From Dehalococcoidia bacterium (GTDB taxonomy: Bacteria; Chloroflexota; Dehalococcoidia; Lucifugimonadales; Australimonadaceae): a stretch of DNA of 64,000 nt. Below the pieces are notes generated by a model, which saw only the letters and a list, made by a program, of their open reading frames with translations, searched no databases and had not been told where the DNA came from. The translations under genes were made by a program, and so were the position numbers. Location: the NCBI GenBank assembly GCA_965242755.1, contig OZ251500.1:1601339-1665338 (forward strand), read 5' to 3'. Positions within the stretch are counted from its first letter, which is position 1. Every line of letters begins with the position of its first letter. Below are positions 926 to 48,765 of this stretch, in pieces.

Positions 926-2707
926 CTACCGCTCCGGCAACTGCCACAACTCCCGAATGCCCGGCTTCATCATCGACTCCTCCGCCATCCGCTCCGCATC
1001 ACGCTCACGGTACAGCAACTCCACCTGCAACTGATTCACCAACTGCCCCTTCGCCCGCGTGATCTTCCACAATTCCGGCATCGTCCTCGTGTGCCCCTTC
1101 GTCTCGTTGCAACCGCCGCAAAGCAGTTGCAGATTCGCCGTGATGTCGAGGCCGCTCTTGACCCACGGAACCACGTGGTCAACACGCATATGACGGAAGT
1201 CCGTGCGAACGCCGCAGCCGAGGCAGTAGCCCTCCTGCCGACCGTAGAGGTCGCGCCGCTCCGCAAGCGTCCGCGGACGGCGACGCTCGGCGATGGCGGC
1301 CTCCTCCTCCGAAACCGGGCGAATCGGCTCGTCGGTCTGCCCAGGCAATTCCGCGACCCGGTGAACCTTCTTGCCGTCGGGAAGGCCGGCGGTCGCGCCC
1401 TCGACCTCCATTTCCGGGAAGGTTCCGCGCAGCCGTTTGACGACCTGGCGATACGCCTCGATGCCCATATCCATGCCGATCCACCGCCGCCCCAACTGCT
1501 CCGCCGCGACGCACGCCGTCGCGCACCCGCAGAACGGATCCAGCACGACATCGCCCGGATTGCTGGAGACTTCGATGAAACGCTCCAGCAGCGCAAGCGG
1601 CTTCTGCGTTGGGTAGCCGGTGTATTCGGCTCGACGGGTGGAGTAGTTGGTGAAGCCGATGGGGTCGAGGATGAGATTCTGCTGCGGGTTGCCGAGGTCG
1701 GCTTCGGCGTACCGCTTCAGCCCCGGCCACTTGCCCCGCTTGGGATGATGAATGAGCCCCGCCGCGTCAAGCGCGTCCAACCTGGCGTGAACGCCTTCTA
1801 TCGCGGTGTAGCCCGGAATGAACATCTCCTCTATGTAGTTCGCGTAGTCGCCCGTCAACGGAACCGACCAGACTCGCCCCATCGCGTGCACGTCGTAGGA
1901 TCTCCACGGCTGCGTGCTCGGCGCCCCCAGAGGCGCGTCGTGAAGCGGCCCCGTCAGATCGGAACTGCGGTAGCGTCCGCGCTCGTCGCTGGACGGATAC
2001 GCCCTGCGAATGGCGGGAGTGGTCTTGCGCTCTCTGATCTCCTCGCCGTTCCACGTGTAGTCGTCGCCGTTCGCGTAGAAGAGAATGTAGTCGGTGATTC
2101 GCCCAAACCTGCGAGCGTCGTTGTGCGAGGTGGCGCGCTTCCATATCAAATTGTTTAGGTAGCGCCCCGACCCGAATACGGAGTCCATAATGCTCTTGAG
2201 ATAATGGCCGGATGTGTCGTCGCAATGCAGATAGATCGAGCCGGTCGGCTTGAGAATGCGCTGCATCTCCACGAGGCGCACCGCCATAAATGTGAGGTAC
2301 CCCTGCATCGAAGGCGAGTGCGCCCGCCCCGCTCCCTCCAAAATCGGCGGCAGCGCGGGAATGACCTGCCCAATCTCCGCGACCCACTCCACCTTCCAAT
2401 TCGGGTCGTCCGGCTCCATCGTGAACACGTCCACGAACCCGACGAGCCGATCCTGAACCGCCGCGAGAGGGTCTGGCCGCTCCTGCGGGGCGGGCAGGCG
2501 AATATCCTGCAGCAGGCCGCGCTCCTCCTGCTCCGCGAGCCCGATGGGATTGAGGTAGGCCTTCCCGCTGTTGAACGGCGGGTCGAGGTAGATGAGGTCG
2601 ACGCAGGCGTCGGGCAGCGCCCGCAGCGCGGGAAGGTTGTCGTTGACGACGATCGTCCGGTTCTCGATCCCGGGCAATATCGGCGCGTTGAGGTTAGTCT
2701 CCGTCAC
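926..2707 (-). CDS. Beta-class N4/N6 DNA methyltransferase fused to a C-terminal HNH endonuclease domain
   Basis: 593-aa ORF. Motif IV 'IYLDPPFNSG' is N-terminal and motif I 'VVLDPFCGCATA' follows it, which is the order expected for a beta-class (ParB/N6_N4-type) methylase. The C-terminus 'CLGCGVRTDFRHMRVDHVVPWVKSG...NLQLLCGGCNETKG' is an HNH pattern. Confidence 0.85.
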   Translation of the reverse strand: MTETNLNAPILPGIENRTIVVNDNLPALRALPDACVDLIYLDPPFNSGKAYLNPIGLAEQEERGLLQDIRLPAPQERPDPLAAVQDRLVGFVDVFTMEPDDPNWKVEWVAEIGQVIPALPPILEGAGRAHSPSMQGYLTFMAVRLVEMQRILKPTGSIYLHCDDTSGHYLKSIMDSVFGSGRYLNNLIWKRATSHNDARRFGRITDYILFYANGDDYTWNGEEIRERKTTPAIRRAYPSSDERGRYRSSDLTGPLHDAPLGAPSTQPWRSYDVHAMGRVWSVPLTGDYANYIEEMFIPGYTAIEGVHARLDALDAAGLIHHPKRGKWPGLKRYAEADLGNPQQNLILDPIGFTNYSTRRAEYTGYPTQKPLALLERFIEVSSNPGDVVLDPFCGCATACVAAEQLGRRWIGMDMGIEAYRQVVKRLRGTFPEMEVEGATAGLPDGKKVHRVAELPGQTDEPIRPVSEEEAAIAERRRPRTLAERRDLYGRQEGYCLGCGVRTDFRHMRVDHVVPWVKSGLDITANLQLLCGGCNETKGHTRTMPELWKITRAKGQLVNQLQVELLYRERDAERMAEESMMKPGIRELWQLPER

Positions 2708-2963: not shown

Positions 2964-3557
2964 CTACCCTTCCGCGTTGCCCCAGCGGTCGTAGTAGGCG
3001 ATCTCGGCGACGGGCTTGCGACGGCTTCCGCCGAGGTGGTCGGGCTCCTGCGGGTAGCCCATCGGAACGAGCGCCATCATCTCCCAGTTATCGGGGACGC
3101 CGAGCAGTTCGGCGACCTCGTCGTAGCAGTGCTGCCAGATCGTCGTGAGGCGCGTCCCGATCCCGAGAGCGGCGGCGGCGAGCATCAGGTTCTGGACGGC
3201 GGGGTAGATCGACGCGCCGCGGTACGCCTCGCCGCCGGAGATTGGCCACCGCTCGACGCACGCCATCACCGCGACGGGCACGTCGGCCATCGCCTCGCTG
3301 AAATGGGGCGGCTCGTCCGCCGGGCGCGACGGAGGCTCGCCGCGCGAGCGGGTCTGCGCCTCGACGTACAACTCGCCGAGTCGCCGCTTGGCCTCGCGGT
3401 CGCGGACGATGATGAATCGCCACGGCTGGCGGTTGCTTCCGCTAGGGGCGCGTGTCGCCGCCTCGATGATTCGCTCAACCGCGCCATCCGGCAACGGGTC
3501 GGGCTTGTAGTGGGCGACGCCCCTCTGGCTGCGAACGACGTCGAAGAAATCAGGCAT
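2964..3557 (-). CDS. Nitroreductase family protein
   Basis: 'RAPSGSNRQPWRFIIVRD' is a typical nitroreductase N-terminal motif. The start is placed at ATG 3557, which follows a GGGAGG Shine-Dalgarno; the track ORF begins at an upstream TTG. Confidence 0.85.
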   Translation of the reverse strand: MPDFFDVVRSQRGVAHYKPDPLPDGAVERIIEAATRAPSGSNRQPWRFIIVRDREAKRRLGELYVEAQTRSRGEPPSRPADEPPHFSEAMADVPVAVMACVERWPISGGEAYRGASIYPAVQNLMLAAAALGIGTRLTTIWQHCYDEVAELLGVPDNWEMMALVPMGYPQEPDHLGGSRRKPVAEIAYYDRWGNAEG

Positions 3558-3656: not shown

Positions 3657-5309
3657 TTACTCCGGCGGGCGGAAGACGCCGAAGACGTCGCGCAGCGCGT
3701 CGCAGACCTCGCCGAGCGTCGCGTAGGACTCGACGCACTCCAGAATCGGCGGCATCAGATTCTCGGAGGGCGAGCGCGCGGATTCCGATAGGCGCCGCAA
3801 GGCCGCCTCGCTCGCGGCGGAGTCGCGCTCGCGCCGCACGCGCTCGAGGCGGGCGATTTGACGCTCCGCCGCCTCCGGGGGGATAGCCTGCAACGCGATG
3901 CGCTCCTCCGCGTCCGACGTGAAGGCGTTGACTCCGACGATGACGCGCTCGCCGCTCTCGACCATTTGGAAGTGGCGGTGCGCGGCTTCTTCGATCTCGC
4001 CGCGCTGAAAGCCGCCCTCTATCGCCGCGACCGCGCCGCCCATCGCGTCGATGCGGTCGATGTACGCCTGCGCCTGCGCCTCGATTTCGTCGGTCAGATG
4101 CTCCACGTAGTGCGAGCCCCCGAGCGGGTCAATCGTGTCGGCCACGCCGGACTCGTTGGCCAAGACTTGCTGCGTCCGGAGCGCGAGAGCCGCCGACTCC
4201 TCGGTGGGCAGCCCCAGCGCCTCGTCCTTCGAGTTGACGTGGAGCGACTGCGCGCCGCCGAGAACGGCCGCGAGCGCCTGCACCGTCGCGCGGACGACGT
4301 TCACGTCGGGCTGCTGCGCCTGCAGCGTCACGCCTGCGGTTTGCGTATGGAAGCGCAGCATCCACGATCGGGGGTCTTTCGCGCCGAATCGCCGGCGCAT
4401 AATCGCCGCCCACATTCGCCGCGCCGCGCGGAACTTGGCCGCCTCCTCGAAGAGGTTGTTGTGCGACGCGAAGAAGAACGAGAGGCGCCCGGCGAAAGCG
4501 TCCACGTCCAGCCCCGCGTCCACCGCCGCCTGCGCGTAGGCGACGCCGTTGGCCAGCGTGAACGCGACCTCCTGCGGCGCCGTCGCGCCCGCCTCGCGCA
4601 TATGGTAGCCGCTGATGCTGATCGTGTTCCAACGCGGAACCTCCGCCGCGCAGTAGGCGAACATATCCGTCGCCAGGCGGAGCGACGGCCCCGGCGGGAA
4701 GATGTGCGTCCCGCGCGCGATGTACTCCTTCAGCACGTCGTTCTGCGTCGTGCCGCCGATCTCCGTGAGCGGCGCGCCTTGCTTCCGCGCCACCGCCAAG
4801 TAGAGCGCGAGCAGCATCGGCGCCGTGGCGTTGATCGTCATCGAGGTGGTGACGTCCGCAAGCGGAATGCCGTCGAACAGCGCCTCCATATCGGCGAGGC
4901 TCGAGATCGGCGCGCCGACCTTGCCGATCTCCGCGCGCGCCATCTCGTGATCCGCGTCGTACCCCGTCTGCGTCGGCAGATCGAACGCGACCGACAGGCC
5001 GGTCTGCCCTTGCGACAGGAGAAAGCGGTAGCGAGCGTTGGAGTCCTCCGGCGTGGAGAAGCCGGCGTACTGCCGCATCGTCCAGAGCCGCCCGCGGTGC
5101 ATCGTGGGGTGGACGCCGCGCGTGAACGGATACTCGCCCGGGAAGCCGACGCGCTCCGCGTAGGCCGACGCATCCGCGTCCGACGGCCCGTAGAGCGGCG
5201 CGGCCTCAATGTCGGACTCCGTGCGGAATGCGTCTTTGCGCTCCGGCGAGCGCCGGACGGCGGGCTCGTAGGTTTCGCGCTCCCATCGGCTGCGTTCGGC
5301 GTCGGTCAT
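3657..5309 (-). CDS. Methylmalonyl-CoA mutase family, catalytic (N-terminal barrel) subunit
   Basis: '[59 protein letters not shown]' is the canonical MCM pattern. The start is ATG 5309 ('MTDAERS'). The upstream 63 codons of the track ORF translate REP repeats ('[10 protein letters not shown]'). This gene has no B12-binding domain. Confidence 0.9.
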
Positions 5310-5404
5310 AGGGGTTAGTGTACTAGGGAGGGAGGGGGAGGGGAGGGGCGCCCCGCAAGCAAAGCCGGTGAGCGGCGGGAGCGTGGCCTGGCGCGTAACC
5401 CTCT

Positions 5405-5572
5405 CCCAGAGGGGATATTTGTCGCCGCTGCCGGGCGGGTGAGGGTTCCTACCGTCATTCCCGCGTAGGCGGGAATCCATGCGGCGCGCAAGCGCCATGA
5501 TGGGGCGCGGGGCGCCCCGTCATTCCTCGAAAGCGGGAACATCCTGGGCGGCCTGAGTTACGCAAAGGCCGC
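5405..5572. repeat. REP/MITE-type repeat cluster flanking the three-gene cassette
   Basis: Contains 'CTCTCCCAGAGGGG', 'CCGTCATTCCCGCGTAGGCGGGAATCC' (5452-5478), the degenerate 'CATTCCTCGAAAGCGGGAAC' (5521-5540) and 'GAGTTACGCAAAGGCCGCC' (5555-5572). Confidence 0.7.
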
Positions 5573-6304
5573 CTACGGACGGAAACGGTCGAACTCAGCG
5601 GGCAGCGCTCGCAGCAACTGCTCCTCGGTCATGCCGTAGACGTCGTAGGTCAGCGACAACTGGTTCAGCGCCTCGATCAGCCGGGGAAGGCTGCCGGGAG
5701 GCGCGGTCGCCCTGCTCGTCCCGAGCGCGCCGCGCCGCATGCCGCCCGTCGCCCTGTCGGCGTAGAGCGTGTGCATCAGCGGAACGACGCCCTTGGATCG
5801 GAAGATCTCGGGAGATTGGACGACGCGGAGCGTGAAATGCCGCATGGCGTTGACGGGCTCGTCCAGCAGCAGCCAAGCGTCCTCTCCCCACTGCGTCCAA
5901 ACCTCGTGGGCCATCAGCAAGCGGTGATGCGAACGGTTGCGGGAGTCGCGCGCCGGGTCCACCAGGTAGGCCGCATCAGGGTATTCGCCTGTCCGCCGCG
6001 TCGGGTCTTGCGTCATCGATTCGAGGTAGAACATCCCGAGCCACGACCAGAGGTAGGGCATCGTCGCGACGTCCGGCCCCAGCGGCTCCAGTTGCGCGGC
6101 GAGGTACTGGCCCGCCTCGCGCCTGTTGGCGAAAGCGCGCTCTTCGACGCAGACCTCCGGCTCCACGGGCAGCGAGTACGTATGCTCCGTGAGCAATCCG
6201 CCCGGAAGCGGCGTCCACCCGCCGGCGCGTATCCCCGTCAGATAGTTCCGCGCGATCCGCATCCCTTCCTGCGTGAATTCGCAGACTTCAACCCGTTCGC
6301 TCAT
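5573..6304 (-). CDS. Cassette gene C: hypothetical protein, no recognised domain
   Basis: 243 aa counted from ATG 6304, which has an AGGTGA Shine-Dalgarno 7 nt upstream. A TTG at 6310 directly abuts the stop of the upstream gene. 'DSRNRSHHRLL' gives an R-N-x3-H pattern. The coding frame has GC-rich third positions. Confidence 0.6.
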   Translation of the reverse strand: MSERVEVCEFTQEGMRIARNYLTGIRAGGWTPLPGGLLTEHTYSLPVEPEVCVEERAFANRREAGQYLAAQLEPLGPDVATMPYLWSWLGMFYLESMTQDPTRRTGEYPDAAYLVDPARDSRNRSHHRLLMAHEVWTQWGEDAWLLLDEPVNAMRHFTLRVVQSPEIFRSKGVVPLMHTLYADRATGGMRRGALGTSRATAPPGSLPRLIEALNQLSLTYDVYGMTEEQLLRALPAEFDRFRP

Positions 6305-6310
6305 CGTCAA

Positions 6311-7072
6311 TCACCTTCGCCCGAGGGCAGCCTCATAGGCGTCGCTGGCGCGGAACTGCTTCTGCGCGAACGCCGCCACGGCCGCGTCTATCCACGCCAT
6401 CCGAGCGGCGCGGTCGACGTCGCCGTCCTCGCCGGACAGCAAGGGTTCATCGTGGAAGGAGCGCGCGAAGCGCAGCCATTCGCTCCAATCGCCTCCGTCG
6501 TCTTCCAAATCCGCGTCGTCGACGATGAGGGCGCGGACGAGAACCGCCCGCATCGCTTCTGGGAACACCAACCCGCGAAACGCGCCGTCATTCTGAACCG
6601 CGGCCTCAATGCCGGGCACGTTGCTGTTGAGCAGCAGCGTTGGGTTGCCGTCACGGTCGACGAAATCCAGCCGCCAGACCTCCTTGCCCAGAGCGTCGCT
6701 CGGCTTCAGCCAGAGCAACGCGCCGCGGCGCTCTTCCCTGCGCGGCCTGATGCGGTTCGCCATCGCAAGCAGCAAGCCGGATCCGTCGGACGCCACCACC
6801 TTCACCCGGAACGAGGGATTGTCCGGCACGCTGACGAGCCGGCGGTCCGGCGGAGGCGCCAGCGCGCCCACCTCGCCCCACGGGAAGCGCATCGCCATCC
6901 GCCCGCGGTACGCCTCGATCGTGACCGGCGCGTCATCGGGCAGGCCCATTCCGTCGAAATTGAGCGTCGCGTTGAACGTGGACGGCCCGCCGTCGGTCGC
7001 CTCGGTCACCTCGAACGCGGCGCGCTCCTGCTCGATGCGCCGCCGGCCCGTGAAGTTAAACCGCCGGATCAT
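6311..7072 (-). CDS. Cassette gene B: hypothetical protein, no recognised domain
   Basis: 253 aa from ATG 7072 ('MIRRFNFTG'), with GGGAG upstream. The start overlaps the end of gene A by 17 nt, and the stop at 6311-6313 abuts gene C. Confidence 0.6.
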   Translation of the reverse strand: MIRRFNFTGRRRIEQERAAFEVTEATDGGPSTFNATLNFDGMGLPDDAPVTIEAYRGRMAMRFPWGEVGALAPPPDRRLVSVPDNPSFRVKVVASDGSGLLLAMANRIRPRREERRGALLWLKPSDALGKEVWRLDFVDRDGNPTLLLNSNVPGIEAAVQNDGAFRGLVFPEAMRAVLVRALIVDDADLEDDGGDWSEWLRFARSFHDEPLLSGEDGDVDRAARMAWIDAAVAAFAQKQFRASDAYEAALGRR

Positions 7073-9050
7073 TGTCCGCTCCCTCGCCCTGCGCCGGGTC
7101 GGCGACCCGCTCCACCCGCGTAAAGACATCCCGACGCATGTCGAACCCAAGCACGGTTACCGAGAACGCCGTGGGGTCGGCGACATCCAGCAGGAGTTCG
7201 TTGCCGTCGGCCCCCGGCAGCGCTTGGCAGCCTTCGGCGCGAACTTCAAGCGCGTCCGCGCCGTGCAAGCGAAAATCGTGCGGGCTATAGGCGTTCATCG
7301 GGTTGCCGCGGGGCGTCTCATACGCGGCCCTGAGCCGGACGCGCTGCGGCGGATCGGAGACGTCGGAGGCGAAGCGCACGCGAAATCCCGTTTCCGCGCG
7401 CTGGACGTCAAAGTCCGGGTGAGAGGGCGGCTGGTCAGGGCGGTCCGGCTTCCCGTTGGGCTTGCCGTTCTTGGCTCTCCGCCGTTTGTCGCCGCGACTG
7501 TCTGCGGGGAAGATGTCGGCGAGCGCGTCCCGCTGCAACTCCACGGGCGCGGCATCCCATATGGAAAGCAGGCTGTTCGGCGCATTACGGACTTCGTCGA
7601 TCCGCCTCTTGGCCGCCACCCAGCGTTTCGCCGCGCGTTCGCTTTGCGGGAGCCACGCCGTGTGCGCGGGAGGCTCCGAGTCACGAAGCATCGCCGCCAG
7701 CGGCTCCGCCCCGTCCGCCACGAGGAGCGTCCGCGCCCTGCGCCGCCCAACGAAATCCATCTTCGTTATGGACAGGTCGCCGCGCACGTAGAAGTCGTGC
7801 CCCTGCGTCAGCGAATCGTCATGCTGGACGTAGAGACGGAAACTGGTCGGCTCCGCGCGGTCCGTCCCCTTCCGCTCCACGCTCGTCCGGACGCGAAACG
7901 CCAGCATTTCGCCGCTCTCGTACCGGGGGCGCAGCCCGGCGAGCATCGCGTGATGCTCGTAGGACGAGACGTTCCGGGGCGGCGAATGCAGTTCGACGTG
8001 CTCGCGGGGCGGAAGAGTCGCAGCGTCGCGGCACATCTCGAAGAGCCGCTGATAACTGCCCGCGCTGCGCTCGCCCTCATCGTCCAGGTTGAGATGGGCA
8101 AGGACATCGTCAATCGTGTCCGCCGTCACCTCCGTAACGGCGGAGCCGCCCTCGTCGACGGTCGCTTCCAACCGACCCGCGAGGATGGGGTAGAAGTAGT
8201 TATGCACGAGCGCCGCGAGGATTTGCCGCCGGTCTATCGGCGGGTCTCCGTCCACGCGAGGGAACGGAATGATCACGGACAATCCCGGCTCGTCCCTGAA
8301 CCGCAGGTCGAAGTCCTCGATGCACCGCTCAATGAACGGCCGGCGCGCGGGGTCGGACGCGAGCAGGGGCAATATCAGGCTGTGCTCGTCGCCGGGCTTG
8401 TCCCTTTCCCCGAGATACCCGTAAGGGTCGTGCCGCCGCCCGTCGACTTTGTGCATCGTTAAGACCGCCTGCCCCATCATCAGCGTCTCGCCGTCCGACC
8501 GGCGCCGCGCGACCGCGATGTAGGCGTTCGCATGCGATGCGTCGGGGAACACCCACTTGCCCAAGCCCCATGAGCCGCCGTCAAGGGCGGATTTGCCGGA
8601 ACGCCCCACGTTGCGGAAGAACCAGTAGAAGTGGTTGTTGTCCGCGTCCTCGTCGAACTGCAGCCAGTCGCCTTCCAGCCCGACCGTGCCTGCGTCTTCG
8701 ATTACCAAGTACGGCATCCCGCTGTTGGCGAGGCCTCGCAGAGCGACTTGCCGGCGGAAGTCGTCGTTCGGGTCGAGCCCCGCCTGCAGATGCTCCTCCA
8801 GCCCCTCGACGTATGCGGCGGCGCTGATCGCATCCAGCGGATCGTGAACGCCCTGCAGGGAGAAGCGCATGCGGACAGGCCCCGCGTAGGTTTGGTCCGC
8901 CCTCGATATGGCTGCGTCCAGCGAGTTCTGCACCGCCTCCCGAACGAGCCGCTCGTTGATCGTCTCGGCGGCGAACAACTCCCGCTCCATCGGGTCGTGG
9001 TTGATCTCCCCCGGCGTCATCGGGCGGAAATGCCAGCGCGTTTCGGCCAT
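7056..9050 (-). CDS. Cassette gene A: GHKL (Bergerat-fold, MORC/Hsp90/sacsin-like) ATPase with a long uncharacterised C-terminal region
   Basis: Motifs seen: N-box 'LVREAVQNSLDAA' (ExxxNxxD), G1 box 'LVIEDAGTVGLEG' (DxGxG) and a G2-like 'GGSWGLGKWVF'. The start is placed at ATG 9050 ('MAETRWHF') after a GAGGA Shine-Dalgarno. About 450 C-terminal residues have no motif I recognise. Confidence 0.75.
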   Translation of the reverse strand: MAETRWHFRPMTPGEINHDPMERELFAAETINERLVREAVQNSLDAAISRADQTYAGPVRMRFSLQGVHDPLDAISAAAYVEGLEEHLQAGLDPNDDFRRQVALRGLANSGMPYLVIEDAGTVGLEGDWLQFDEDADNNHFYWFFRNVGRSGKSALDGGSWGLGKWVFPDASHANAYIAVARRRSDGETLMMGQAVLTMHKVDGRRHDPYGYLGERDKPGDEHSLILPLLASDPARRPFIERCIEDFDLRFRDEPGLSVIIPFPRVDGDPPIDRRQILAALVHNYFYPILAGRLEATVDEGGSAVTEVTADTIDDVLAHLNLDDEGERSAGSYQRLFEMCRDAATLPPREHVELHSPPRNVSSYEHHAMLAGLRPRYESGEMLAFRVRTSVERKGTDRAEPTSFRLYVQHDDSLTQGHDFYVRGDLSITKMDFVGRRRARTLLVADGAEPLAAMLRDSEPPAHTAWLPQSERAAKRWVAAKRRIDEVRNAPNSLLSIWDAAPVELQRDALADIFPADSRGDKRRRAKNGKPNGKPDRPDQPPSHPDFDVQRAETGFRVRFASDVSDPPQRVRLRAAYETPRGNPMNAYSPHDFRLHGADALEVRAEGCQALPGADGNELLLDVADPTAFSVTVLGFDMRRDVFTRVERVADPAQGEGADNDPAV

Positions 9051-9119
9051 GCGGATTCCTCTGATGGGCAGATCAAGGGATGATACCCGGCCAGCATCGC
9101 GTCTGTCCATTCGCGCGGA

Positions 9120-9180
9120 GCGCCACTCCTCTCCTACGCAATCTCAGATCATTTCCGCCTACGCGGGAACCTACCGACGC
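9120..9180. repeat. REP-type hairpin between the cassette and tRNA-Leu
   Basis: 'TTTCCGCCTACGCGGGAACCTAC' (about 9151-9173) is the inverted orientation of the family core. It is preceded by 'CTCCTCTCCTACG', as seen in other copies. Confidence 0.6.
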
Positions 9181-9229
9181 AGTAGAGTTACGCCCAATCG
9201 CCCCCAACGGCGCTATAATCACCCCAAGG

Positions 9230-9315
9230 GCCGAAGTGGCGGAAGGGTAGACGCGGCGGTCTCAAAAACCGTTGAGGGCAACCTCATGCCGGTTCGAATC
9301 CGGCCTTCGGCACCA
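9230..9315 (+). tRNA. tRNA-Leu (anticodon CAA), class II with long variable arm, CCA encoded
   Basis: I folded this by hand. The acceptor stem is GCCGAAG / CTTCGGC. The anticodon stem GCGGT/ACCGT carries loop CT-CAA-AA. The long variable arm is 'GAGGGCAACCTCA', the T-arm is 'GCCGGTTCGAATCCGGC', and the discriminator A is followed by CCA. Confidence 0.9.
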
Positions 9316-9360
9316 AGCCTACGAACCTCGGCGGCGCTTCGGCGCCAAGCCTACGAATCT
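9305..9360 (+). repeat. Direct duplication of the tRNA-Leu 3' end
   Basis: 'CTTCGGCACCAAGCCTACGAACCT' (9305-9328) and 'CTTCGGCGCCAAGCCTACGAATCT' (9337-9360) match at 22 of 24 positions. Confidence 0.7.
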
Positions 9361-9421
9361 GCGGCGCCAATCCCGCCGAATCTTCCGGCGGACCTCCGGC
9401 GCCAATCCCAACCCGCGCGCT

Positions 9422-10945
9422 TTACCGCTGCGCGACCGCCTTCGGCTCCGGCGGCTGCAGGACGCCGATGTACGGCAGGTTGCGGTACCGCCCTCCGTAG
9501 TCCAATCCGTAGCCGATGACGAATTCGTCGGGGATCTCGAAGCCGACGTAGTCCAGATGGACGTTCGTCATTCGGCGGACGGACTTGTCGAGCAGGGCGC
9601 AGACGCGGAGGCTCGCGGGGCCTTTGGCCTCCAGGTGCTCCCTGAGGTAGCGCAGCGTGAGGCCGGTGTCGGCGATGTCCTCCACGACGATGGCGTGCCT
9701 GTCGGTGAGGTCGGTCGTCACGTCGCGGATGACGTCGATGCTCTCCTGGCGCTCTTCGCCGTAGTGGGTGATCTCCATAAACTCCAATTGCATAGGGAGG
9801 TTCACGGCGCGCATCAGGTCGGCCATAAAGACGACGACGCCGCGCAAGACGCCGATGAGCACGGGCTCCTCGCCCGCGTAGTCCTCCGTGATGCGCGCGC
9901 CAAGTTCCCGGACGCGCTCTTGCACGCGCGCCTCGTCGAACAGCACGCGCTCCGTGCCCTCGACCGAAACGCCGGCGAGCGGCCCGAACCCGTACTTGCC
10001 CATCAGCCGCATCAGGTCTTTGCGGTAGAGGAGTTGGACGTTCACCTCGGGGTACAGCTCCCGCACGCGCCGGAGTTTCCGGTTCTTCTGCGTGACGAGG
10101 TTCTGCTTCATCGTGGTGAGTTCGAAGTACTGGTCGTGCTCCGGCAGGTAGAAGTCGGGTGTGAACATCTCCACGACGCGGCTCCCGTCCCAGCGCAAGG
10201 GGAAGGAGCGCGGCTCGTAGAGGTAGTTGATCTGGTAGTAGTCGAGGAGGTCGGCGAACTCCTTTTCGCTGGGGTGCATAAAGGCTTTCGCGGGGCTCTC
10301 CTGCTCGCCGCGCCGCCGTCCGGCGCGGCGGCCTCCGCGTTTGGACGCGCCTTCGCCCCGAGGGGATTCCTCGCCCTCCGTCCCCGCCGGCATGCCGATA
10401 ACCGCGCCCTGCGCCGTCGCCCGCCGCTCGCCGGGGCGGAGCAACGGAGCGGCGCGCTTCTTCTCCGTAGCGGCGGAGTCGCTTGCCGCGGACGGCGCCG
10501 CAGAGTCGGCGTTCGCCCGCGAGCCGCGGCGTCCGCGTCTGCCGCGCGATGACCCGGCGGGCTGCGCCTCCTCGGATGCGGCGGGGGGAGATTCGCTTGC
10601 GGCGGGCGGCGCCGTAGCCTCGGCGTTCGCCCGCGAGCCGCGGCGTCCGCGTCTGCTGCGGGAGGACGCGGCTGGCTGCGTCTCCTCGGATGCGGGAGGG
10701 GAATCGCTTGCGGCGGACGGCGCCGCAGAGTCGGCGCTCGCCCGGGAGCCGCGGCGTCCGCGTCTGCTGCGGGAGGGCGCGGCAGTCTGCGTCTCCTCGG
10801 ATGCGGCGGGAGAATCGCTTGCGGCGGACGGCGCCGCAGTGTCGGCGCTCGTCCGCGAGCCTCGGCGTCCGCGCCTGCTGCGGGATGGCGCGGCGGGCTC
10901 GCCCTCGCGTTCGGGCAACTGCGTCTGTCCGGGTTCCTGAACCAT
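9422..10945 (-). CDS. hpt: Hypoxanthine phosphoribosyltransferase with a ~320-aa N-terminal extension (Arg/Ser-rich tandem repeats plus an uncharacterised globular domain)
   Basis: The C-terminal ~180 aa is a classical HPRT ('AIVVEDIADTGLTLRYL' PRPP loop, 'FVIGYGLDYGGRYRNLPYIG'). ATG 10945 is preceded by GGAGGAGCGG. There is no stop between the extension and the HPRT domain. Confidence 0.85.
   Translation of the reverse strand: MVQEPGQTQLPEREGEPAAPSRSRRGRRGSRTSADTAAPSAASDSPAASEETQTAAPSRSRRGRRGSRASADSAAPSAASDSPPASEETQPAASSRSRRGRRGSRANAEATAPPAASESPPAASEEAQPAGSSRGRRGRRGSRANADSAAPSAASDSAATEKKRAAPLLRPGERRATAQGAVIGMPAGTEGEESPRGEGASKRGGRRAGRRRGEQESPAKAFMHPSEKEFADLLDYYQINYLYEPRSFPLRWDGSRVVEMFTPDFYLPEHDQYFELTTMKQNLVTQKNRKLRRVRELYPEVNVQLLYRKDLMRLMGKYGFGPLAGVSVEGTERVLFDEARVQERVRELGARITEDYAGEEPVLIGVLRGVVVFMADLMRAVNLPMQLEFMEITHYGEERQESIDVIRDVTTDLTDRHAIVVEDIADTGLTLRYLREHLEAKGPASLRVCALLDKSVRRMTNVHLDYVGFEIPDEFVIGYGLDYGGRYRNLPYIGVLQPPEPKAVAQR
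10466..10885 (-). repeat. Four in-frame tandem repeats (111-114 nt) inside the hpt 5' region
   Basis: 'GAGCCGCGGCGTCCGCG' recurs at 10521, 10635, 10746 and 10857. The encoded unit is 'SRSRRGRRGSRA.AD.AAPSAASDSP.ASEE.Q'. Confidence 0.85.
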
Positions 10946-10979
10946 CCGCTCCTCCGCGCCGGACTGGGTCGTCGGGCGA

Positions 10980-13900
10980 TTATCGCACAGGCGAACGCTC
11001 CGCCGCTTGGACGGCGCCGCGCACGTAGTCCACGGTTGGCGCGACGTTGTAGTCGGAGCCGCCGAACGCCAGCGCCTCGACCGCGGCCCGCGCGGTGTCC
11101 ACGGACGTGTAGCACGGAATGCGGCGCTCCGTCGCGGCGCGGCGTATCTCGAATCCGTCGCGCAGCGCTTGGGCGACCTCCGCCACCGTGTTCAGCACGG
11201 CGTCCGCCGTTCCGTCGGCGACGATGGAGTAGGCGTTGGGCTCCGGCTCGCCGACTTTGTTGACTTCGTTGACGGCCAGCCCGAGGCCGCGAAGGAGCGC
11301 CGCCGTGCCGCGGGTCGCGTACAACTCGTAGTCCATCGCGCCGAGCGTCTTGAGCCAGGCCGCCGCGTCCGTCTTGTCTCTGTCCGCGATAGTGACGAGG
11401 ATCCGGCCGGTCGGCGGGAGCATCAGCCCTGCGGCCATGAGCGCTTTGGCGACCGCCGCGCGGGGGCTCACGTCTATCCCCATCACCTCGCCGGTGGACT
11501 TCATCTCCGGGCCGAGGTAGGAGTCCACTCCGGCGAGTTTGGACATTGAGAACACGGGCGCTTTCACGCTCGTCATCGGCGGGTCCGGCTGCAAGCCGCC
11601 TTCGCGCTCCTGCTCCGCGAGGGAGCGCCCCAGCATCACGTTCGTCGCCAGCCGCACCATCGGAATGCCGGTGACCTTCGAGATGAAGGGCACGGTGCGG
11701 CTCGACCGCGGATTGACCTCAATGACGTACACCGACGAGAGTCCGCTGTCCGCCGCGACGGTCAGGCCGAACGGCTTGCTTTCGTTCACGATGACGTATT
11801 GGATGTTGATCAGGCCGCGCGCGCCTAGCGCGATGCCGATGCGCGTCGTGTAGTCCACGATCGCGTCGCGCTCATGCGCCGACAGCCCCGCCGCCGGATA
11901 GACCGCCATGGAGTCGCCCGAATGGACGCCCGCCCGCTCCACGTGCTCCATAATCCCGGGAATGAGCGCCTGCTCGCCGTCCACCACCGCGTCCACCTCG
12001 ACCTCGCGCCCCTGCAGATACTTGTCCACCAAGATCGGCCGGCCCGGCGCGGCTTCGAACGCCCGCGCGAGGTAGCGGCGAAACTCCGTCAGATTGTCCA
12101 CGATCTCCATCGCGCGCCCGCCGAGCACGTAACTGGGGCGCACGACGAGGGGGAATCCCAGCCGCGCGGCTATCGCGTCGCCCTCCTCCGCGGACAACGC
12201 CGTGTCGCCCGGAGGCTGGGGAACGCCAAGCCGCGCCATCAGCCCGCCGAAGCGCTCGCGGTCGGACGCCAGGTCTATCGCGTCCGCCGACGATCCGAGA
12301 ATCGGCAGGCCCGCCGCGCTGATCGCCTGGCTCAGGTTGATCGCCGTCTGCCCGCCGAACTGCACAACCGACGGGGGATGCGCGCCGCCGACCTCCTCGT
12401 TCTCGATGACGTCGCGGACGCTCTCCTCGTCGAGCGGCTCGAAGTAGAGGCGGTCGCTCGTGTCGAAATCGGTCGAGACCGTCTCGGGGTTCGAGTTGAC
12501 CATAATGGAGTTGACGCCCGCCGCGTTGAGCGCCCAGGCCGCGTGGACGGAGCAGTAGTCGAACTCGATGCCCTGCCCGATCCGGATGGGCCCGCTGCCA
12601 ATGACCACCGCCTTCTCGCCGTCCAGCGGCTCCGCCTCGTTCTCCTGCTCGTAGGAACTGTAGAAGTAGGGGGTGACGGCCTCGAACTCCGCCGCGCAGG
12701 TGTCCACCATCTTGTAGACCGGCTTCAGCCCCAGTTCCTTCCGCAGCGCCCGCGCCTCCTCATGCGTCCGCCTCGTCAGCGCCGCGATAGCCTCGTCGGG
12801 CATGCCCAAGCGCTTCGCTTCCCGCATCAGCGCGCGGTCGAGCGGCTCCGTCCGCAGACGCGCCTCCATCGCGACGATGCGCGCCAACCCGTGCAGAAAC
12901 CACGGATCCACGTGCGTCGCTACGGCAAGCGCGTCAACGGACATTCCGCGCCGGAGCGCGGCGGCCATCGCCCAAAGGCGGTCGTCCGTCGGCTCGAGCG
13001 GGAGGTCCTCGGCGGGCGCCCCTTCCCACTCGGGGTCTTCCCAGAGGAGCGTTCGGCCTCCGATTTCGATGGAGCGGACGGCCTTCTGCAACGCCGCCTC
13101 GAAACTCCGGTCTATCGCCATCACCTCGCCGGTGGCCTTCATCTGCGTGCCGATGGCGCGGTCGCCGCGCGCGAACTTGTCGAACGGCCAGCGCGGCGAC
13201 TTGATGACGCAGTAGTCGAGCGCAGGCTCGAACGCCGCTTTCGTGCGCTGCGTAACCGCGTTCGGAATCTCGTCCAGCCTGCGCCCCGCCGCGATCTTCG
13301 CGGCGACCCGCGCAATCGGGTAGCCCGTCGCCTTCGACGCCAGCGCCGACGACCGGCTCACGCGCGGATTCACCTCAATGACGAAGTACTCCATCGGATC
13401 CGGCGCGCCCCCGGGCAGCGACTCCCCAACGACCGGATGCGGCGACAGCCCGAACTGGATGTTGCAGCCGCCCTCTATGCCCAGCGCCCGGATGATCCGG
13501 ATGCTCGCCGAGCGCAGCATCTGATGCTCCTTGTCGGAGAGCGTCTGGCTTGGCGCGATGACGATGCTGTCGCCGGTGTGGACGCCCATCGCGTCCAGAT
13601 TCTCCATATTGCATATCGTTACGCAGGTGTCCGCCGCGTCGCGCATCACCTCGTACTCGACCTCGCGCCAGCCGCGCATCGAGCGCTCCACGAGCGCCTG
13701 CCCGATGGGGCTCGCCGCCACGCCGCTCGCCGCGACCGCCTCCAACTCCTCCCACGTCGTCGCGAAGCCGCCGCCCGTCCCGCCGAGCGTGTACGCGGGG
13801 CGCACCACGAGCGGCAGCCCCAGCGCGCGCCCCGCCTCCATCGCCTCCGCCGCCGAATTCGCCACGACGCTCGGCGCCGCGGGCTCCCCAAGCCGCTCCA

Positions 13901-16039: not shown

Positions 16040-17941
16040 TCATTCCCGCGCAGACGGGAATCCGGCAAGCGCGCCTACCGCGAATCGCTCGCCGGCGGGC
16101 GGATGCCCTCCTCCCCAGCATACGAGGCTGCCGTCGGGCCGCAAGGCGCAAGTGTCTTGCCAGTCGCAGCTGATCGACGTAAACCGCTCGCCTTCCGGCG
16201 GCGACGTCTGACCCGCGCCGCCATCTCCCCAGCACGCCGCGCTCCCGTCCGGCCTCAGCCCGCATGCGTGGTCGCCGCCCGTGCTGATCGCCGTGAACCG
16301 CTCATCCTGGGGCGCCGACAATTGGCTTATCGGGTCGCCTAACAAGTTTTCTCCCCAACACAAGGGAGAGCCGTCGAGGCGCAGCGCGCACGTATAGTCG
16401 AATCCGGCGCTGATCATTGCAAACCGCTCGCCTTCCGGCGGCGACGCGCTCCCGGAATCGTTGTTTCCCCAACACGCGGCGGAGCCGTCGGCGCGCAGAC
16501 CGCAGGCGTAACTCAACCCGACGCTGATAGCCGTGAACCGCTCGCCCTCCGGCGGCGACAAGTCGCCCCAGTCATCTTCCATCGGCCCCCAACACACAGG
16601 GGAGCCGTCGGCGCGCAGACCGCACGTATGGACTCCGCCCGCGCTGATCGCCGTGAAACGCTCGCCTTGCCACAATTCCGGGTATGGGTAGAGGCCCTCA
16701 TCCCCCCAGCAGGCGGGGCTGCCGTCGTCCCGCAGCGCGCAGAAGTGCAAGAGCCCGCTGCTGATGGATGCGAAACCGGAGGCGAAGCGTTCGTCGTCGT
16801 CGGGCGGCGGCGACCATATTTCAGCCCCAGCCCAACAGACGAGGCCGCCATCGGCGCGCAGACCGCACTTATGCCCGCCTCCGTTGCTGATCGCCGTGAA
16901 CCGCTCATCGGCCGACGGCAAGGCTGCTCGGCCTCCCCAGCAGACGGCGGCGCCGTCGGCGCGCAGACCGCAGACATGCCCGCCGCCGGCGCTGATCGCC
17001 GCGAACCGCTCGCTCTCCGGCAAGGCTCCGAAACTATCGAACCCCCAGCAAACCGGACTGCCGTCTTGCCGAAGGGCGCACGTGTCCAACGACCCGCTGG
17101 CGATCGCCGCGAACCGTTCGCCTTCCGGCGGGGCGATGCCGTCGGTGTTTCCCCAGCAAACCGGGCTTCCGTCGGGTCGCAGCGCGCAAACGTGCCCTCC
17201 TCCCACGCTGACCGTGATGAATCGCTCATCCTCCGCCGGGGGCGTCCCGGGAGTCCATCCCCAACAAACGAGCGTCCCGTCGGGCCGGAGCGCGCACGTT
17301 TGACCGCCCCCTGCGCTGATCATCGTGAACCGCTCGCCCTCGGGCGGCGACGCTTGTCCTTCGCTGTCGCTTCCCCAGCACGCCGCGCTGCCGTCGAGGC
17401 GCAGCGCGCATGTATGGGGCCAAAAGGGAGACGTCCCGCCGCTGACCGCCATAAACCGTTCGCCCTCGGGCGGCGACGCTTGCCCCGCGTCATCGGCTCC
17501 CCAGCAAATGAGCGTCCCGTCGGGGCGCAGCCCGCAGGAGTGCGCTACCCCTGCGCTAATCATCGTAAATTGCTCGCCTTCGGGCGGCGACGCTTGCCCT
17601 GCGCTATTGTCCCCCCAACACGCGGCGCCGCCGTCCGGCCGCAGCGCGCACGTATGGCCACCGCCGCTGCTCAGCGTCGTTGCATTGAGCGCGGGAGCGA
17701 CCGGGGCGGGCGAGGTGGGCGTGGGAGCGGCGGGCGTGGCGGTCGCGGATGCCGCGGAGGCGGTCGGCGCGCGAGGGACGGCGGACGTGGTTGCCGCGGA
17801 TGCGGCGGGCGGCGTAGGAGACGGCGCGACGGGCACCGTAGCGGGCGCGGATGGAGCGTCGGTCGGCGTCGCGTCGGAGTCGCAGGCGGCGACTGCGAGG
17901 AGCGCGAACGCGGCGAGAAGGGGGACGGCTAGTCGGAGCAT
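16040..17941 (-). CDS. Secreted lipoprotein made of about 14 RCC1-like (beta-propeller blade) repeats
   Basis: The signal peptide has lipobox 'LLAVAAC'. Repeats of about 39 aa read 'GG.H.CGLR.DG...CWG....GQ..PP.GERF..IS.G'. The last codons ('FPSARE') are read from a REP element at about 16035-16070. Confidence 0.8.
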   Translation of the reverse strand: MLRLAVPLLAAFALLAVAACDSDATPTDAPSAPATVPVAPSPTPPAASAATTSAVPRAPTASAASATATPAAPTPTSPAPVAPALNATTLSSGGGHTCALRPDGGAACWGDNSAGQASPPEGEQFTMISAGVAHSCGLRPDGTLICWGADDAGQASPPEGERFMAVSGGTSPFWPHTCALRLDGSAACWGSDSEGQASPPEGERFTMISAGGGQTCALRPDGTLVCWGWTPGTPPAEDERFITVSVGGGHVCALRPDGSPVCWGNTDGIAPPEGERFAAIASGSLDTCALRQDGSPVCWGFDSFGALPESERFAAISAGGGHVCGLRADGAAVCWGGRAALPSADERFTAISNGGGHKCGLRADGGLVCWAGAEIWSPPPDDDERFASGFASISSGLLHFCALRDDGSPACWGDEGLYPYPELWQGERFTAISAGGVHTCGLRADGSPVCWGPMEDDWGDLSPPEGERFTAISVGLSYACGLRADGSAACWGNNDSGSASPPEGERFAMISAGFDYTCALRLDGSPLCWGENLLGDPISQLSAPQDERFTAISTGGDHACGLRPDGSAACWGDGGAGQTSPPEGERFTSISCDWQDTCALRPDGSLVCWGGGHPPAGERFAVGALAGFPSARE

Positions 17942-36602: not shown

Positions 36603-36724
36603 CCCTTGACACGCAACACAGTTGCTCTCCCGATGGGAGACCTTTGCATAACCTACCGTCATTCCCGCGTAGGCGGGAATCCAGGCGGCGCGCAGCGCCG
36701 CTCCTCTCCCACGTAAGCGCCCCG

Positions 36725-48485: not shown

Positions 48486-48765
48486 TGACCGCGAAAGCGG
48501 GAACCTACTCCCCGGTCCCGTCATTCCCGCGTAGGCGGGAATCCAGGCGGCGCGGAGCGCCATGACGGGGCGCAAGCCTCGTCTCCAAGTCATCCCCGAG
48601 GCCACGTCATTCCCGCGAAGCGGGAATCTAGTCCACACGTCCGTCATTCCCGCGCAGCCGCGAACCCACCCGCCACGCAAGCGCCATGAGACAGGGCGCC
48701 ACGCGCCCCGTCCCCAAGCCATCCCCCCACCGCCCATGTCGTTCCGCGTAGGCGGGAACAACTGG
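48486..48765. repeat. Cluster of five REP hairpins
   Basis: Hairpins at about 48488-48505 (GAAA loop), 48519-48545 (GTAG), 48605-48628 (shortened GAA-type loop, 'TTCCCGCGAAGCGGGAA'), 48641-48665 (degenerate) and 48738-48760 (GTAG). Spacing is irregular. Confidence 0.7.

Follow-up and report, generated by a model that had tools for sequence, protein, structure and literature searches.

A three-gene cassette led by a GHKL ATPase in a Dehalococcoidia genome is a distant sister of the PDC-M33 candidate defence system

PDC-M33 is a cassette of three protein families catalogued in PADLOC (CAS_00129, listed count 98; Payne et al. 2024, bioRxiv 10.1101/2024.01.29.577857). It is among 145 candidates picked out by their location inside BREX, DISARM or type I restriction-modification (R-M) loci (10.1101/2024.01.29.577857), and is composed of a GHKL protein (PDC-M33A), PDC-M33B and PDC-M33C, the last corresponding to Pfam DUF6339 (PF19866). 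A GHKL domain is also present in VcSduA, a Vibrio cholerae Shedu variant that combines it with a DUF4263 nuclease and has an ATPase-dependent anti-phage phenotype (PMC12137116). The locus described here is located in a 64,000-nucleotide (nt) stretch of the Dehalococcoidia bacterium contig OZ251500.1 (assembly GCA_965242755.1, positions 1,601,339 to 1,665,338), the whole of which is termed the window. It comprises three genes on the minus strand in the order A (7056-9050, 664 amino acids), B (6311-7072, 253 amino acids) and C (5573-6304, 243 amino acids). The comparison places this trio as a divergent and distant sister branch of the PDC-M33 candidate, and the reading towards which we lean, by a modest degree, is that its three proteins make up a self-contained, mobile and ATP-dependent system acting against foreign genetic elements, phage or plasmid.

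The window trio resembles PDC-M33 in having three co-directional overlapping genes in the same order and of similar length, with 664, 253 and 243 amino acids compared with ~630-670, 235-345 and 230-275 amino acids in PDC-M33-type loci. The sole database signal obtained with the trio is the match of A to PDC-M33A, with E=4e-14 over residues 6-218 of A and positions 5-208 of the 627 in the profile, and other members of the branch reach values of up to 6.5e-23 in the ATPase region. Bona fide PDC-M33A proteins score ~5e-47, with the Enterococcus faecalis protein covering profile positions 3-479 and an N-terminally truncated Deinococcus open reading frame (ORF) covering 179-618; the Deinococcus trio as a whole matches the PDC-M33 models with E values of 5e-47 (A), 7e-28 (B) and 9e-24 (C). 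In addition to the homologous ATPase region, A and PDC-M33A have in common the motif LRxxEPPxHxxW, which is located outside the ATPase domain and supports homology over the full length of the proteins. Searches of plasmid sequences with tblastn recover distant relatives of A, each followed by two small overlapping genes. The trios on the Arthrobacter, Deinococcus, Halomicrobium and Enterococcus plasmids are PDC-M33 proper, with a third gene encoding a Pfam DUF6339 protein, and Rhizobium leguminosarum TP16 pRlX5 (NZ_CP140867.1, ~1,015,900-1,019,500) carries a true family member matched at full length by all three proteins (A 3e-53, B 4e-21 and C 6e-27).

The third protein is possibly a very divergent DUF6339. 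The elements LWxWL and (H/N)RL are collinear in C and the DUF6339 proteins, with LWSWL of C aligned to LWxWL and HRL aligned to RLWW. An hhalign comparison of C with four DUF6339 proteins gives P=1.2e-3 with a probability of 19% over 222 columns, which is the best of four cross-comparisons (the three controls give P=0.09-0.58) and makes the link no more than suggestive. As the PADLOC models miss B and C, the cassette is treated as a divergent sister branch that current tools do not call. An initial reading of the window made from the DNA letters, termed the sequence-only reading, had placed the trio outside the named systems; this holds in that PADLOC would not call it, and fails in that a distant candidate has the same architecture, so that with PDC-M33 already catalogued the system is not categorically new. 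No mention of PDC-M33 or DUF6339 was found in the paper texts searched, and a literature search on GHKL/Bergerat proteins and defence returned VcSduA, SLFN-pAgo and CapK and did not return the A-B-C trio.

Gene A is defined by its ORF, its homologues, a structural model, Foldseek and PADLOC, and a word-index search recovers at least 792 homologues of ~660-690 amino acids. From the N to the C terminus the protein is arranged as a GHKL (Bergerat) ATPase domain, a transducer-like middle region, a basic disordered linker and an Ig-like β-sandwich. GHKL motif I (the N-box, REAVQNSLDA, residues 37-46; 8913-8942, minus strand) has R37, E38, Q41, N42, L44, D45 and A46 invariant in an alignment of 111 sequences, and its E, N and D positions are invariant also across the PDC-M33-type relatives; E38 is the putative catalytic base and N42 the putative Mg2+ ligand. 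In motif II (the G1 box, IEDAGTVGLEG, residues 117-127; 8670-8702, minus strand) E118, D119, G124, L125 and G127 are invariant, and D119 is the putative adenine contact. The ATP-lid region FYWFFRNVGRSGK and the motif III that follows it (the G2 box, GGSWGLGKW) lie together at 8547-8630 on the minus strand, as defined by alignment and model, and here F141, W143, F144, F145, R146, N147, K153, G159, S160, W161, G162, G164 and K165 are invariant. The stretch GGSWGLGKWVF corresponds to residues 158-168, and residues 140-170 are modeled with low predicted local distance difference test (pLDDT) scores, as expected of a mobile lid. The signature LRDSEPPAHTAW (residues 455-466; 7653-7688, minus strand), which follows the pattern LRxxEPPxHxxW, has L455, D457, E459, H463 and W466 invariant in the same 111 sequences, with the glutamate and histidine invariant too in the Arthrobacter, Halomicrobium, Enterococcus and Rhizobium relatives. 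The signature could be catalytic, metal-binding or part of an interface.

The linker RGDKRRRAKNGKPNGKPDRPDQPP (7425-7496, minus strand; residues 517-540) has pLDDT below 50 in the AlphaFold2 (AF2) model and an isoelectric point of 10.4, compared with 5.3 for the whole protein; its sequence is variable, yet it is present in all homologues aligned. The C-terminal β-sandwich that follows (approximately residues 545-650; 7101-7418, minus strand) is all-β with pLDDT 90-97, and has weak Foldseek matches to CTLA-4 and to sandwiches of the p53 and CP2 DNA-binding type (E=0.01-0.05). The model of A as a whole has pLDDT 86.7 and a predicted template modeling (pTM) score of 0.73. At E<=1e-3 Foldseek returns 41 matches, all to GHKL proteins with a transducer domain, including Topo VI-B (E=3e-9), TRAP1 (E=2e-7; TRAP1/Hsp90 ~1e-7 to 1e-4) and the GyrB/Topo II ATPase regions (~1e-5); the alignments to Topo VI-B, TRAP1 and GyrB extend over ~500-760 columns.

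Topo VI-B, Hsp90/TRAP1 and GyrB/Topo II share with A the Bergerat fold, motifs I-III and an α/β middle region. Across these matches (E=3e-9 to 1e-4, Foldseek probability 1.00) sequence identity is ~9% and the global TM score ~0.3. What sets A apart from them is the signature motif, the basic linker and the Ig-like C terminus, together with the lack of an Hsp90-type C-terminal domain. Searches of Pfam, NCBIfam and PHROGs with A give no match at E<=1, the HATPase-type families included, and the family is too divergent for the HATPase_c-type hidden Markov models (HMMs) of Pfam and NCBIfam. The PDB sequences contain no convincing relative when searched with A or its family profile. The invariant motifs I-III together with the structural matches bear out the initial assignment of A to the Bergerat-fold GHKL ATPases, and by alignment and model it is a catalytically competent-looking enzyme whose middle region is transducer-like, of the kind seen in Topo VI-B, Hsp90 and GyrB.

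Iyer, Abhiman and Aravind in 2008 (cited in PMC12137116) reportedly tied prokaryotic MORC/paraMORC GHKL ATPases to R-M systems, and the likeness to the window trio consists of a large GHKL ATPase with small uncharacterised partners in conflict-type contexts. The MORC/paraMORC analogy drawn for A is not borne out, as there is no match to the HATPase_c_3 or MORC HMMs and none of the 41 Foldseek matches is to MORC or MutL; with Topo VI-B, Hsp90 and GyrB as the nearest structures, membership of the MORC family is unsupported. Membership of Topo VI is likewise unsupported, B and C together with 33 and 34 homologues having no Toprim or Topo VI-A match in Pfam at E<=10. VcSduA is similar to A in its N-terminal GHKL ATPase domain, which is proposed to act as a gate for the downstream effector (PMC12137116). 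It is a single polypeptide with a PD-(D/E)xK nuclease, whereas the window trio consists of separate proteins with no recognisable effector domain.

Gene B is defined by its ORF and by 116 homologues in the word-index search. Its N terminus, MIRRFN(F/Y)TxRxRI, is conserved; the protein also has an EVWRLDF motif, and its C-terminal half contains an acidic loop. The B profile matches 2162 clusters among 1.84 billion representatives at 50% identity, nearly all of them stand-alone proteins of ~250 amino acids. No match to B was found in Pfam (E<=10, including 33 homologues), PADLOC, PHROG or the PDB sequences. One homologue, P0134 (275 amino acids), begins with an antitoxin-like DUF6364 segment where the conserved MIRRFN start would be expected; this probably reflects a wrongly called start, or else the fusion of B to an antitoxin gene lying upstream. 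In three loci (L041, L022 and L007; labels of this form denote related genome loci) A or B is frameshifted; these copies may be pseudogenes or may reflect errors of long-read sequencing.

Gene C, defined by its ORF and its AF2 model, has 228 homologues in the word-index search. The model is mostly helical (pLDDT 88.7, pTM 0.86), and its best Foldseek matches have E=3.7 in the PDB and 1.9 in BFVD, with no HEPN protein among those matched. A search of the PDB sequences with the C profile found nothing, and 34 members of the family have no Pfam match at E<=10. Pfam, NCBIfam and PHROGs are empty for both B and C, in agreement with the first impression that no domain could be assigned to either. 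Structure prediction and profile searching, suggested at the outset, thus recover the GHKL fold for A, return no structural match for C and yield no Pfam family for A, B or C.

A HEPN RNase had been considered for C from an RNxxxH pattern in the stretch DSRNRSHHRLL (residues 120-130; 5915-5947, minus strand). In the alignment the conserved part of this stretch is the final (H/N)-R-L only, with R128 invariant and L129 near-invariant, and the arginine of RN and the following histidine both vary across 34 and 104 homologues. R128, the only near-invariant arginine, is placed after the histidine and is replaced by tyrosine in the L032 clade. As the pattern is not conserved the HEPN reading is rejected, a conclusion reached both from conservation (no Rx4-6H motif is conserved) and from the confident fold, which matches no HEPN protein.

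The three ORFs are where the sequence-only reading had put them, all on the minus strand, and contain the peptides that it quoted (REAVQNSLDA, IEDAGTVGLEG and GGSWGLGKWVF in A, DSRNRSHHRLL in C). With a GC content of ~68%, the genome has many long shadow ORFs; A, B and C are real genes and not such shadows, as judged by the homologue counts and, for A and C, by the confident models. Starts at 9050, 7072 and 6304 are favoured over the longer mechanical ORFs beginning at 9110, 7150 and 6310, because the N termini of the homologues align there. In the sequence itself the overlap between A and B measures 17 nt and the stop of B is followed after 6 nt by the start of C, both as first described, with B and C in the same reading frame. 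The corresponding junctions are similarly close in all eight gene-called loci: A/B varies between an overlap of 20 nt and a gap of 2 nt, and B/C between an overlap of 4 nt and a gap of 11 nt. Translational coupling is therefore a conserved property.

A pattern scan with one genome per species, in which the trio was checked by tblastn, yielded 44 loci. Every one of them has the three genes side by side on one strand in the order A-B-C, which answers the question of co-occurrence raised with the initial reading. On clustering the ORFs of these loci, no family besides A, B and C is present in all 44, the other recurrent clusters being antisense shadows or subsets of close relatives, and no conserved fourth gene was found. 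The sequence identities of A, B and C to their counterparts fall in step, from 76, 80 and 79% in L001 to 37, 36 and 34% in L026. A, B and C form an obligate, co-inherited and translationally coupled trio.

The closest relatives are from Dehalococcoidia, Longimicrobiales, Candidatus (Ca.) Palauibacter (Gemmatimonadota), Ca. Hopanoidivorans (Acidimicrobiia) and one gammaproteobacterium. In a neighbour-joining tree of A, sequences from Chloroflexota, Gemmatimonadota, Actinomycetota and Gammaproteobacteria are intermingled, with the gammaproteobacterial copy placed with Palauibacter, two Dehalococcoidia with Acidimicrobiia and another Dehalococcoidia with Longimicrobiales. This mixing of phyla suggests gene exchange inside the sponge microbiome. 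The closest members (A at >=33% identity) are almost all uncultured metagenome-assembled genomes (MAGs), several with sponge-derived taxon or bin names, and the span L001-L044 includes Ca. Hopanoidivorans cymbastelae and gammaproteobacterium RHO1_bin_70.

The genes flanking the cassette in the window are common to none of 55 loci. A 94%-identical copy (L056) is located at the same site as in the window, and an 83%-identical copy is at another site. In L030 (10975-12200) gene A is split by an insertion of ~1.2 kb between residues 320 and 317, probably an insertion sequence element. The copy number of C varies, with the arrangement A-B-C-C-C on OY730226.1 (L035, 12880-15272) and A-B-C-A-B-C-C on OZ241365.1 (L032, 10001-18626), where the two A copies are 57% identical. 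The tandem C copies are intact and keep the family-invariant residues at mutual identities of 72-81% in L035 and 57-63% in L032. Taken together, the mixing of phyla, the variable site, the tandem C genes and the split A point to a mobile accessory system, most likely one of defence.

The plasmid loci of PDC-M33 are defence islands. In Arthrobacter the neighbours are Dcm, Vsr, a type II restriction endonuclease, HEPN_Swt1-DUF3320, Shedu and an ISL3 transposase; in Deinococcus they are Dcm, Vsr and a protein matching TmtA/PDC-S36; Halomicrobium has a cytosine methyltransferase, and E. faecalis an AIPR gene and a recombinase, with resolvases also among the plasmid neighbours. In a difference between the two branches, PDC-M33 loci carry an adjoining HEPN_Swt1-DUF3320 or AIPR gene and the window branch has no such gene. 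The gene directly upstream of A in PDC-M33 is variable, being HEPN_Swt1 plus DUF3320 in Arthrobacter (L050, 4414-5544, minus strand), a gene matching the PADLOC TmtA and PDC-S36 models in Deinococcus (L048, 4142-5287, minus strand) and an AIPR protein gene in E. faecalis (L047, 4695-5885, plus strand). It may represent a fourth, effector-like component without a counterpart in the window branch. In the window branch itself, the genes often present within 10 kb of the cassette include toxin-antitoxin (TA) pairs, transposases, N6/N4 methyltransferases (some accompanied by ResIII), a NYN nuclease, and a helicase paired with a sacsin-like ATPase. Six of the eight gene-called contexts have an R-M, TA, transposase or nuclease gene at <=10 kb. 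This is a raw count; housekeeping genes are in the majority in these contexts, and one of the eight (L056) is the window's own site in a 94%-identical genome.

As a distant sister of PDC-M33 the trio is probably an anti-phage or anti-plasmid system. The role in conflict or defence first put forward for the cassette is retained as the best reading on the basis of the PDC-M33 homology, the phyla-mixed A tree and the variable site; the defence function itself is a prediction from these comparisons. Several observations weigh against it. PDC-M33, the nearest relative, is itself a candidate, one of 145, and across all branch members tried B has no match to PDC-M33B and C none to PDC-M33C (PADLOC, E<=1), while C also has no match to Pfam DUF6339 at E<=10 in 34 members and hhalign does not support homology of B to PDC-M33B (P=0.58). 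No effector domain is recognisable in A, B or C, nuclease, NADase and membrane domains included, as had been observed initially for canonical nuclease, NADase and transmembrane effectors. The GC content of the cassette equals that of the genome, and its immediate neighbours in this branch are mostly housekeeping genes; the TA, R-M and transposase genes seen nearby are generally abundant in these symbiont genomes. Relatives of the trio were not found on IMG/VR viral contigs, and those on plasmids are distant ones only. Finally, the dimeric clamp, its ligand and the roles of B and C set out below are features that we infer.

In the mechanism proposed for a defence system, A would dimerise by way of its N-terminal domains in their ATP-bound state, giving a clamp gated by nucleotide, as other GHKL proteins with a transducer domain dimerise in this way. 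The basic linker and the Ig-like domain could engage nucleic acid or a phage-derived ligand, and the transducer region would link ATP binding and hydrolysis, with E38 as the base and N42 coordinating Mg2+, to B and C. C would more likely be the specificity or effector subunit, because its fold is unmatched and its tandem paralogues are duplicated, diversified and intact, and B would more likely be an adaptor bridging A and C. With no recognisable effector, the step that kills or blocks would be a new activity in B, C or the signature of A, or an enzyme-free ATP-driven entrapment of DNA.

An extended form of the latter, which is unlikely, is an immunity without an effector enzyme in which the GHKL clamp would be a functional analogue of eukaryotic MORC silencing and C a fast-diversifying specificity subunit. 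Here the A dimer would entrap or compact invading DNA by means of ATP through the basic linker and the Ig-like domain, with B as an adaptor, and rapid diversification of C would explain the intact tandem C-C-C arrays. The cassette would circulate horizontally among sponge symbionts of at least four phyla.

The behaviour of the cassette as a mobile, patchy and duplicated element is also consistent with a selfish or addictive module, or one of inter-element or inter-bacterial conflict, in which the ATPase would regulate a toxic partner and the trio would provide TA-like stabilisation or plasmid maintenance; selection would then be for something other than phage defence. The resolvases and recombinases adjoining the plasmid relatives, the TA genes frequent among the neighbours and the lack of a recognisable effector all fit such a module. 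However, three proteins totaling ~1160 amino acids with an ATPase of 664 are atypical of TA or stabilisation systems, and PDC-M33, embedded in BREX, DISARM and R-M loci and located beside Shedu and R-M genes, follows the pattern of immune genes. With no relatives on the viral contigs of IMG/VR either, we regard this explanation as improbable.

A role on the host chromosome, with A as a housekeeping nucleic-acid machine for topology, repair or chromatin comparable to MutL, Topo VI or MORC and with B and C as structural components, is doubtful. The closest structures to A are the ATPase-transducer modules of Topo VI-B and GyrB, the basic linker and Ig-like domain could bind DNA, and the largely housekeeping neighbours and the lack of a compositional anomaly are what such a machine would have. 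Against this, a partner of the Toprim, Spo11 or endonuclease kind is missing from the trio, and Pfam returns nothing for B and C. The chromosomal position differs even at 83% identity and the tree of A mixes phyla, and the split A, the frameshifted copies, the tandem duplications and the relatives on plasmids are further departures from the behaviour of a housekeeping machine.

An Hsp90-like protein remodeller with two co-factors, serving quality control or the processing of symbiosis factors in sponge-associated bacteria, has in its favour the TRAP1/Hsp90 proteins among the best Foldseek matches and the overwhelming share of sponge-symbiont MAGs among the closest family members, but is highly improbable: there is no match to an Hsp90 family HMM, the C-terminal part of A is a disordered basic linker and an all-β Ig-like domain whereas Hsp90 ends in a helical dimerisation domain, the sister branch has a defence-like context, and the same architecture on Rhizobium, Arthrobacter, Deinococcus, Enterococcus and haloarchaeal plasmids means that it is not sponge-specific.

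If the trio acts in defence, it represents a widespread immune architecture built on a GHKL ATPase, with 2162 clusters at 50% identity matched by the B profile alone. No domain is recognised in two of the three proteins, and the fold of C is confident yet unmatched in the PDB and BFVD; the system would work by a new mechanism, given that no known effector chemistry can be seen. Current tools miss the whole branch, the PADLOC PDC-M33 models detecting the ATPase only, and the link between the branch and PDC-M33 roughly outlines a superfamily across Bacteria and haloarchaea. Culturable carriers are identified in Rhizobium leguminosarum pRlX5 and Arthrobacter agilis pAAG24-152. The concentration of relatives in sponge symbionts, together with the phyla-mixed A tree, makes the cassette a marker of gene exchange in that microbiome. 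Even with a function other than defence, this would be a large and conserved family.

The cassette is placed between a methylmalonyl-CoA mutase gene (3657-5498) and tRNA-Leu(CAA) (9230-9315), as described from the sequence alone. A σ70-like promoter candidate, TGGACA-18-TATCAT, is located at 9080-9109 on the minus strand and agrees with the consensus at 10 of 12 positions; it is the sole such site in 5300-9450, and its -10 element ends 30 nt upstream of the ATG at 9050. By its consensus match it is a candidate for the operon promoter. At the other end a GC-rich hairpin (5547-5573, minus strand) starts on the final base of the stop codon of C, and the minus-strand RNA of 5440-5580 folds with -72 kcal/mol (z=-3.6). 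The operon probably has its 3' end at this hairpin, beyond which lie hairpins of the repetitive extragenic palindromic (REP) type; the first hairpin has no T-run and is therefore not a canonical intrinsic terminator.

The REP-like hairpin TTCCCGCnnnnGCGGGAA is found on either side of the cassette, at 5458-5475 and 9152-9169. The palindrome has 21 copies in the 64-kb window compared with 0.83 expected, is intergenic and often paired, and has further sites at, for example, 737-754, 36662-36679 and 48524-48541. The REP clusters noticed at first beside the cassette do exist, but with this distribution they are a generic intergenic repeat, and neither a cassette-specific bracket nor a role as cassette boundaries is retained. 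Integration linked to the tRNA gene was also ruled out, 39 of 42 related loci having no tRNA gene in the fetched stretch and L044 alone having one close to the cassette (~0.7 kb downstream). A compositional island was ruled out as well, with the cassette at 0.66-0.69 GC equal to its flanks.

In the window the interval between the phosphoribosyltransferase gene and A is ~370 bp and holds the tRNA-Leu gene; in L056 the corresponding region has a transposase fragment (DUF772; 3094-3321) and 1.3 kb of extra sequence. A gene for a fused N6/N4 DNA methyltransferase-HNH endonuclease of 593 amino acids (window 926-2707, minus strand; PADLOC MTase_II, E=1e-50) is located at a distance of 2.9 kb from the cassette and is present also in L056. 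In L052, where A is 75% identical, a divergent gene for a NYN-domain nuclease (8966-9574, minus strand) is located directly upstream of A and is absent from the window. In L045 (OZ252088.1, 917-5389, minus strand) a sacsin-like protein of 799 amino acids and a DEAD/ResIII/SNF2 helicase of 685 are encoded 5 kb from the trio and could be another ATPase-helicase conflict pair, the ATPase label coming from a weak SACS match alone.

The phosphoribosyltransferase-domain protein at 9422-10945 (minus strand) has a long N-terminal extension of approximately four tandem repeats of ~36 amino acids (..SRSRRGRRGSRxSADxAAPSAASDSPxASEE..), and a GC spike of 0.72-0.74 at 10000-11500 coincides with these repeats. 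Further along, the window encodes an RCC1-repeat protein of 633 amino acids (16040-17941, minus strand; RCC1_2, E=7e-70), and RCC1-like eukaryote-like repeat proteins are common in sponge symbionts.

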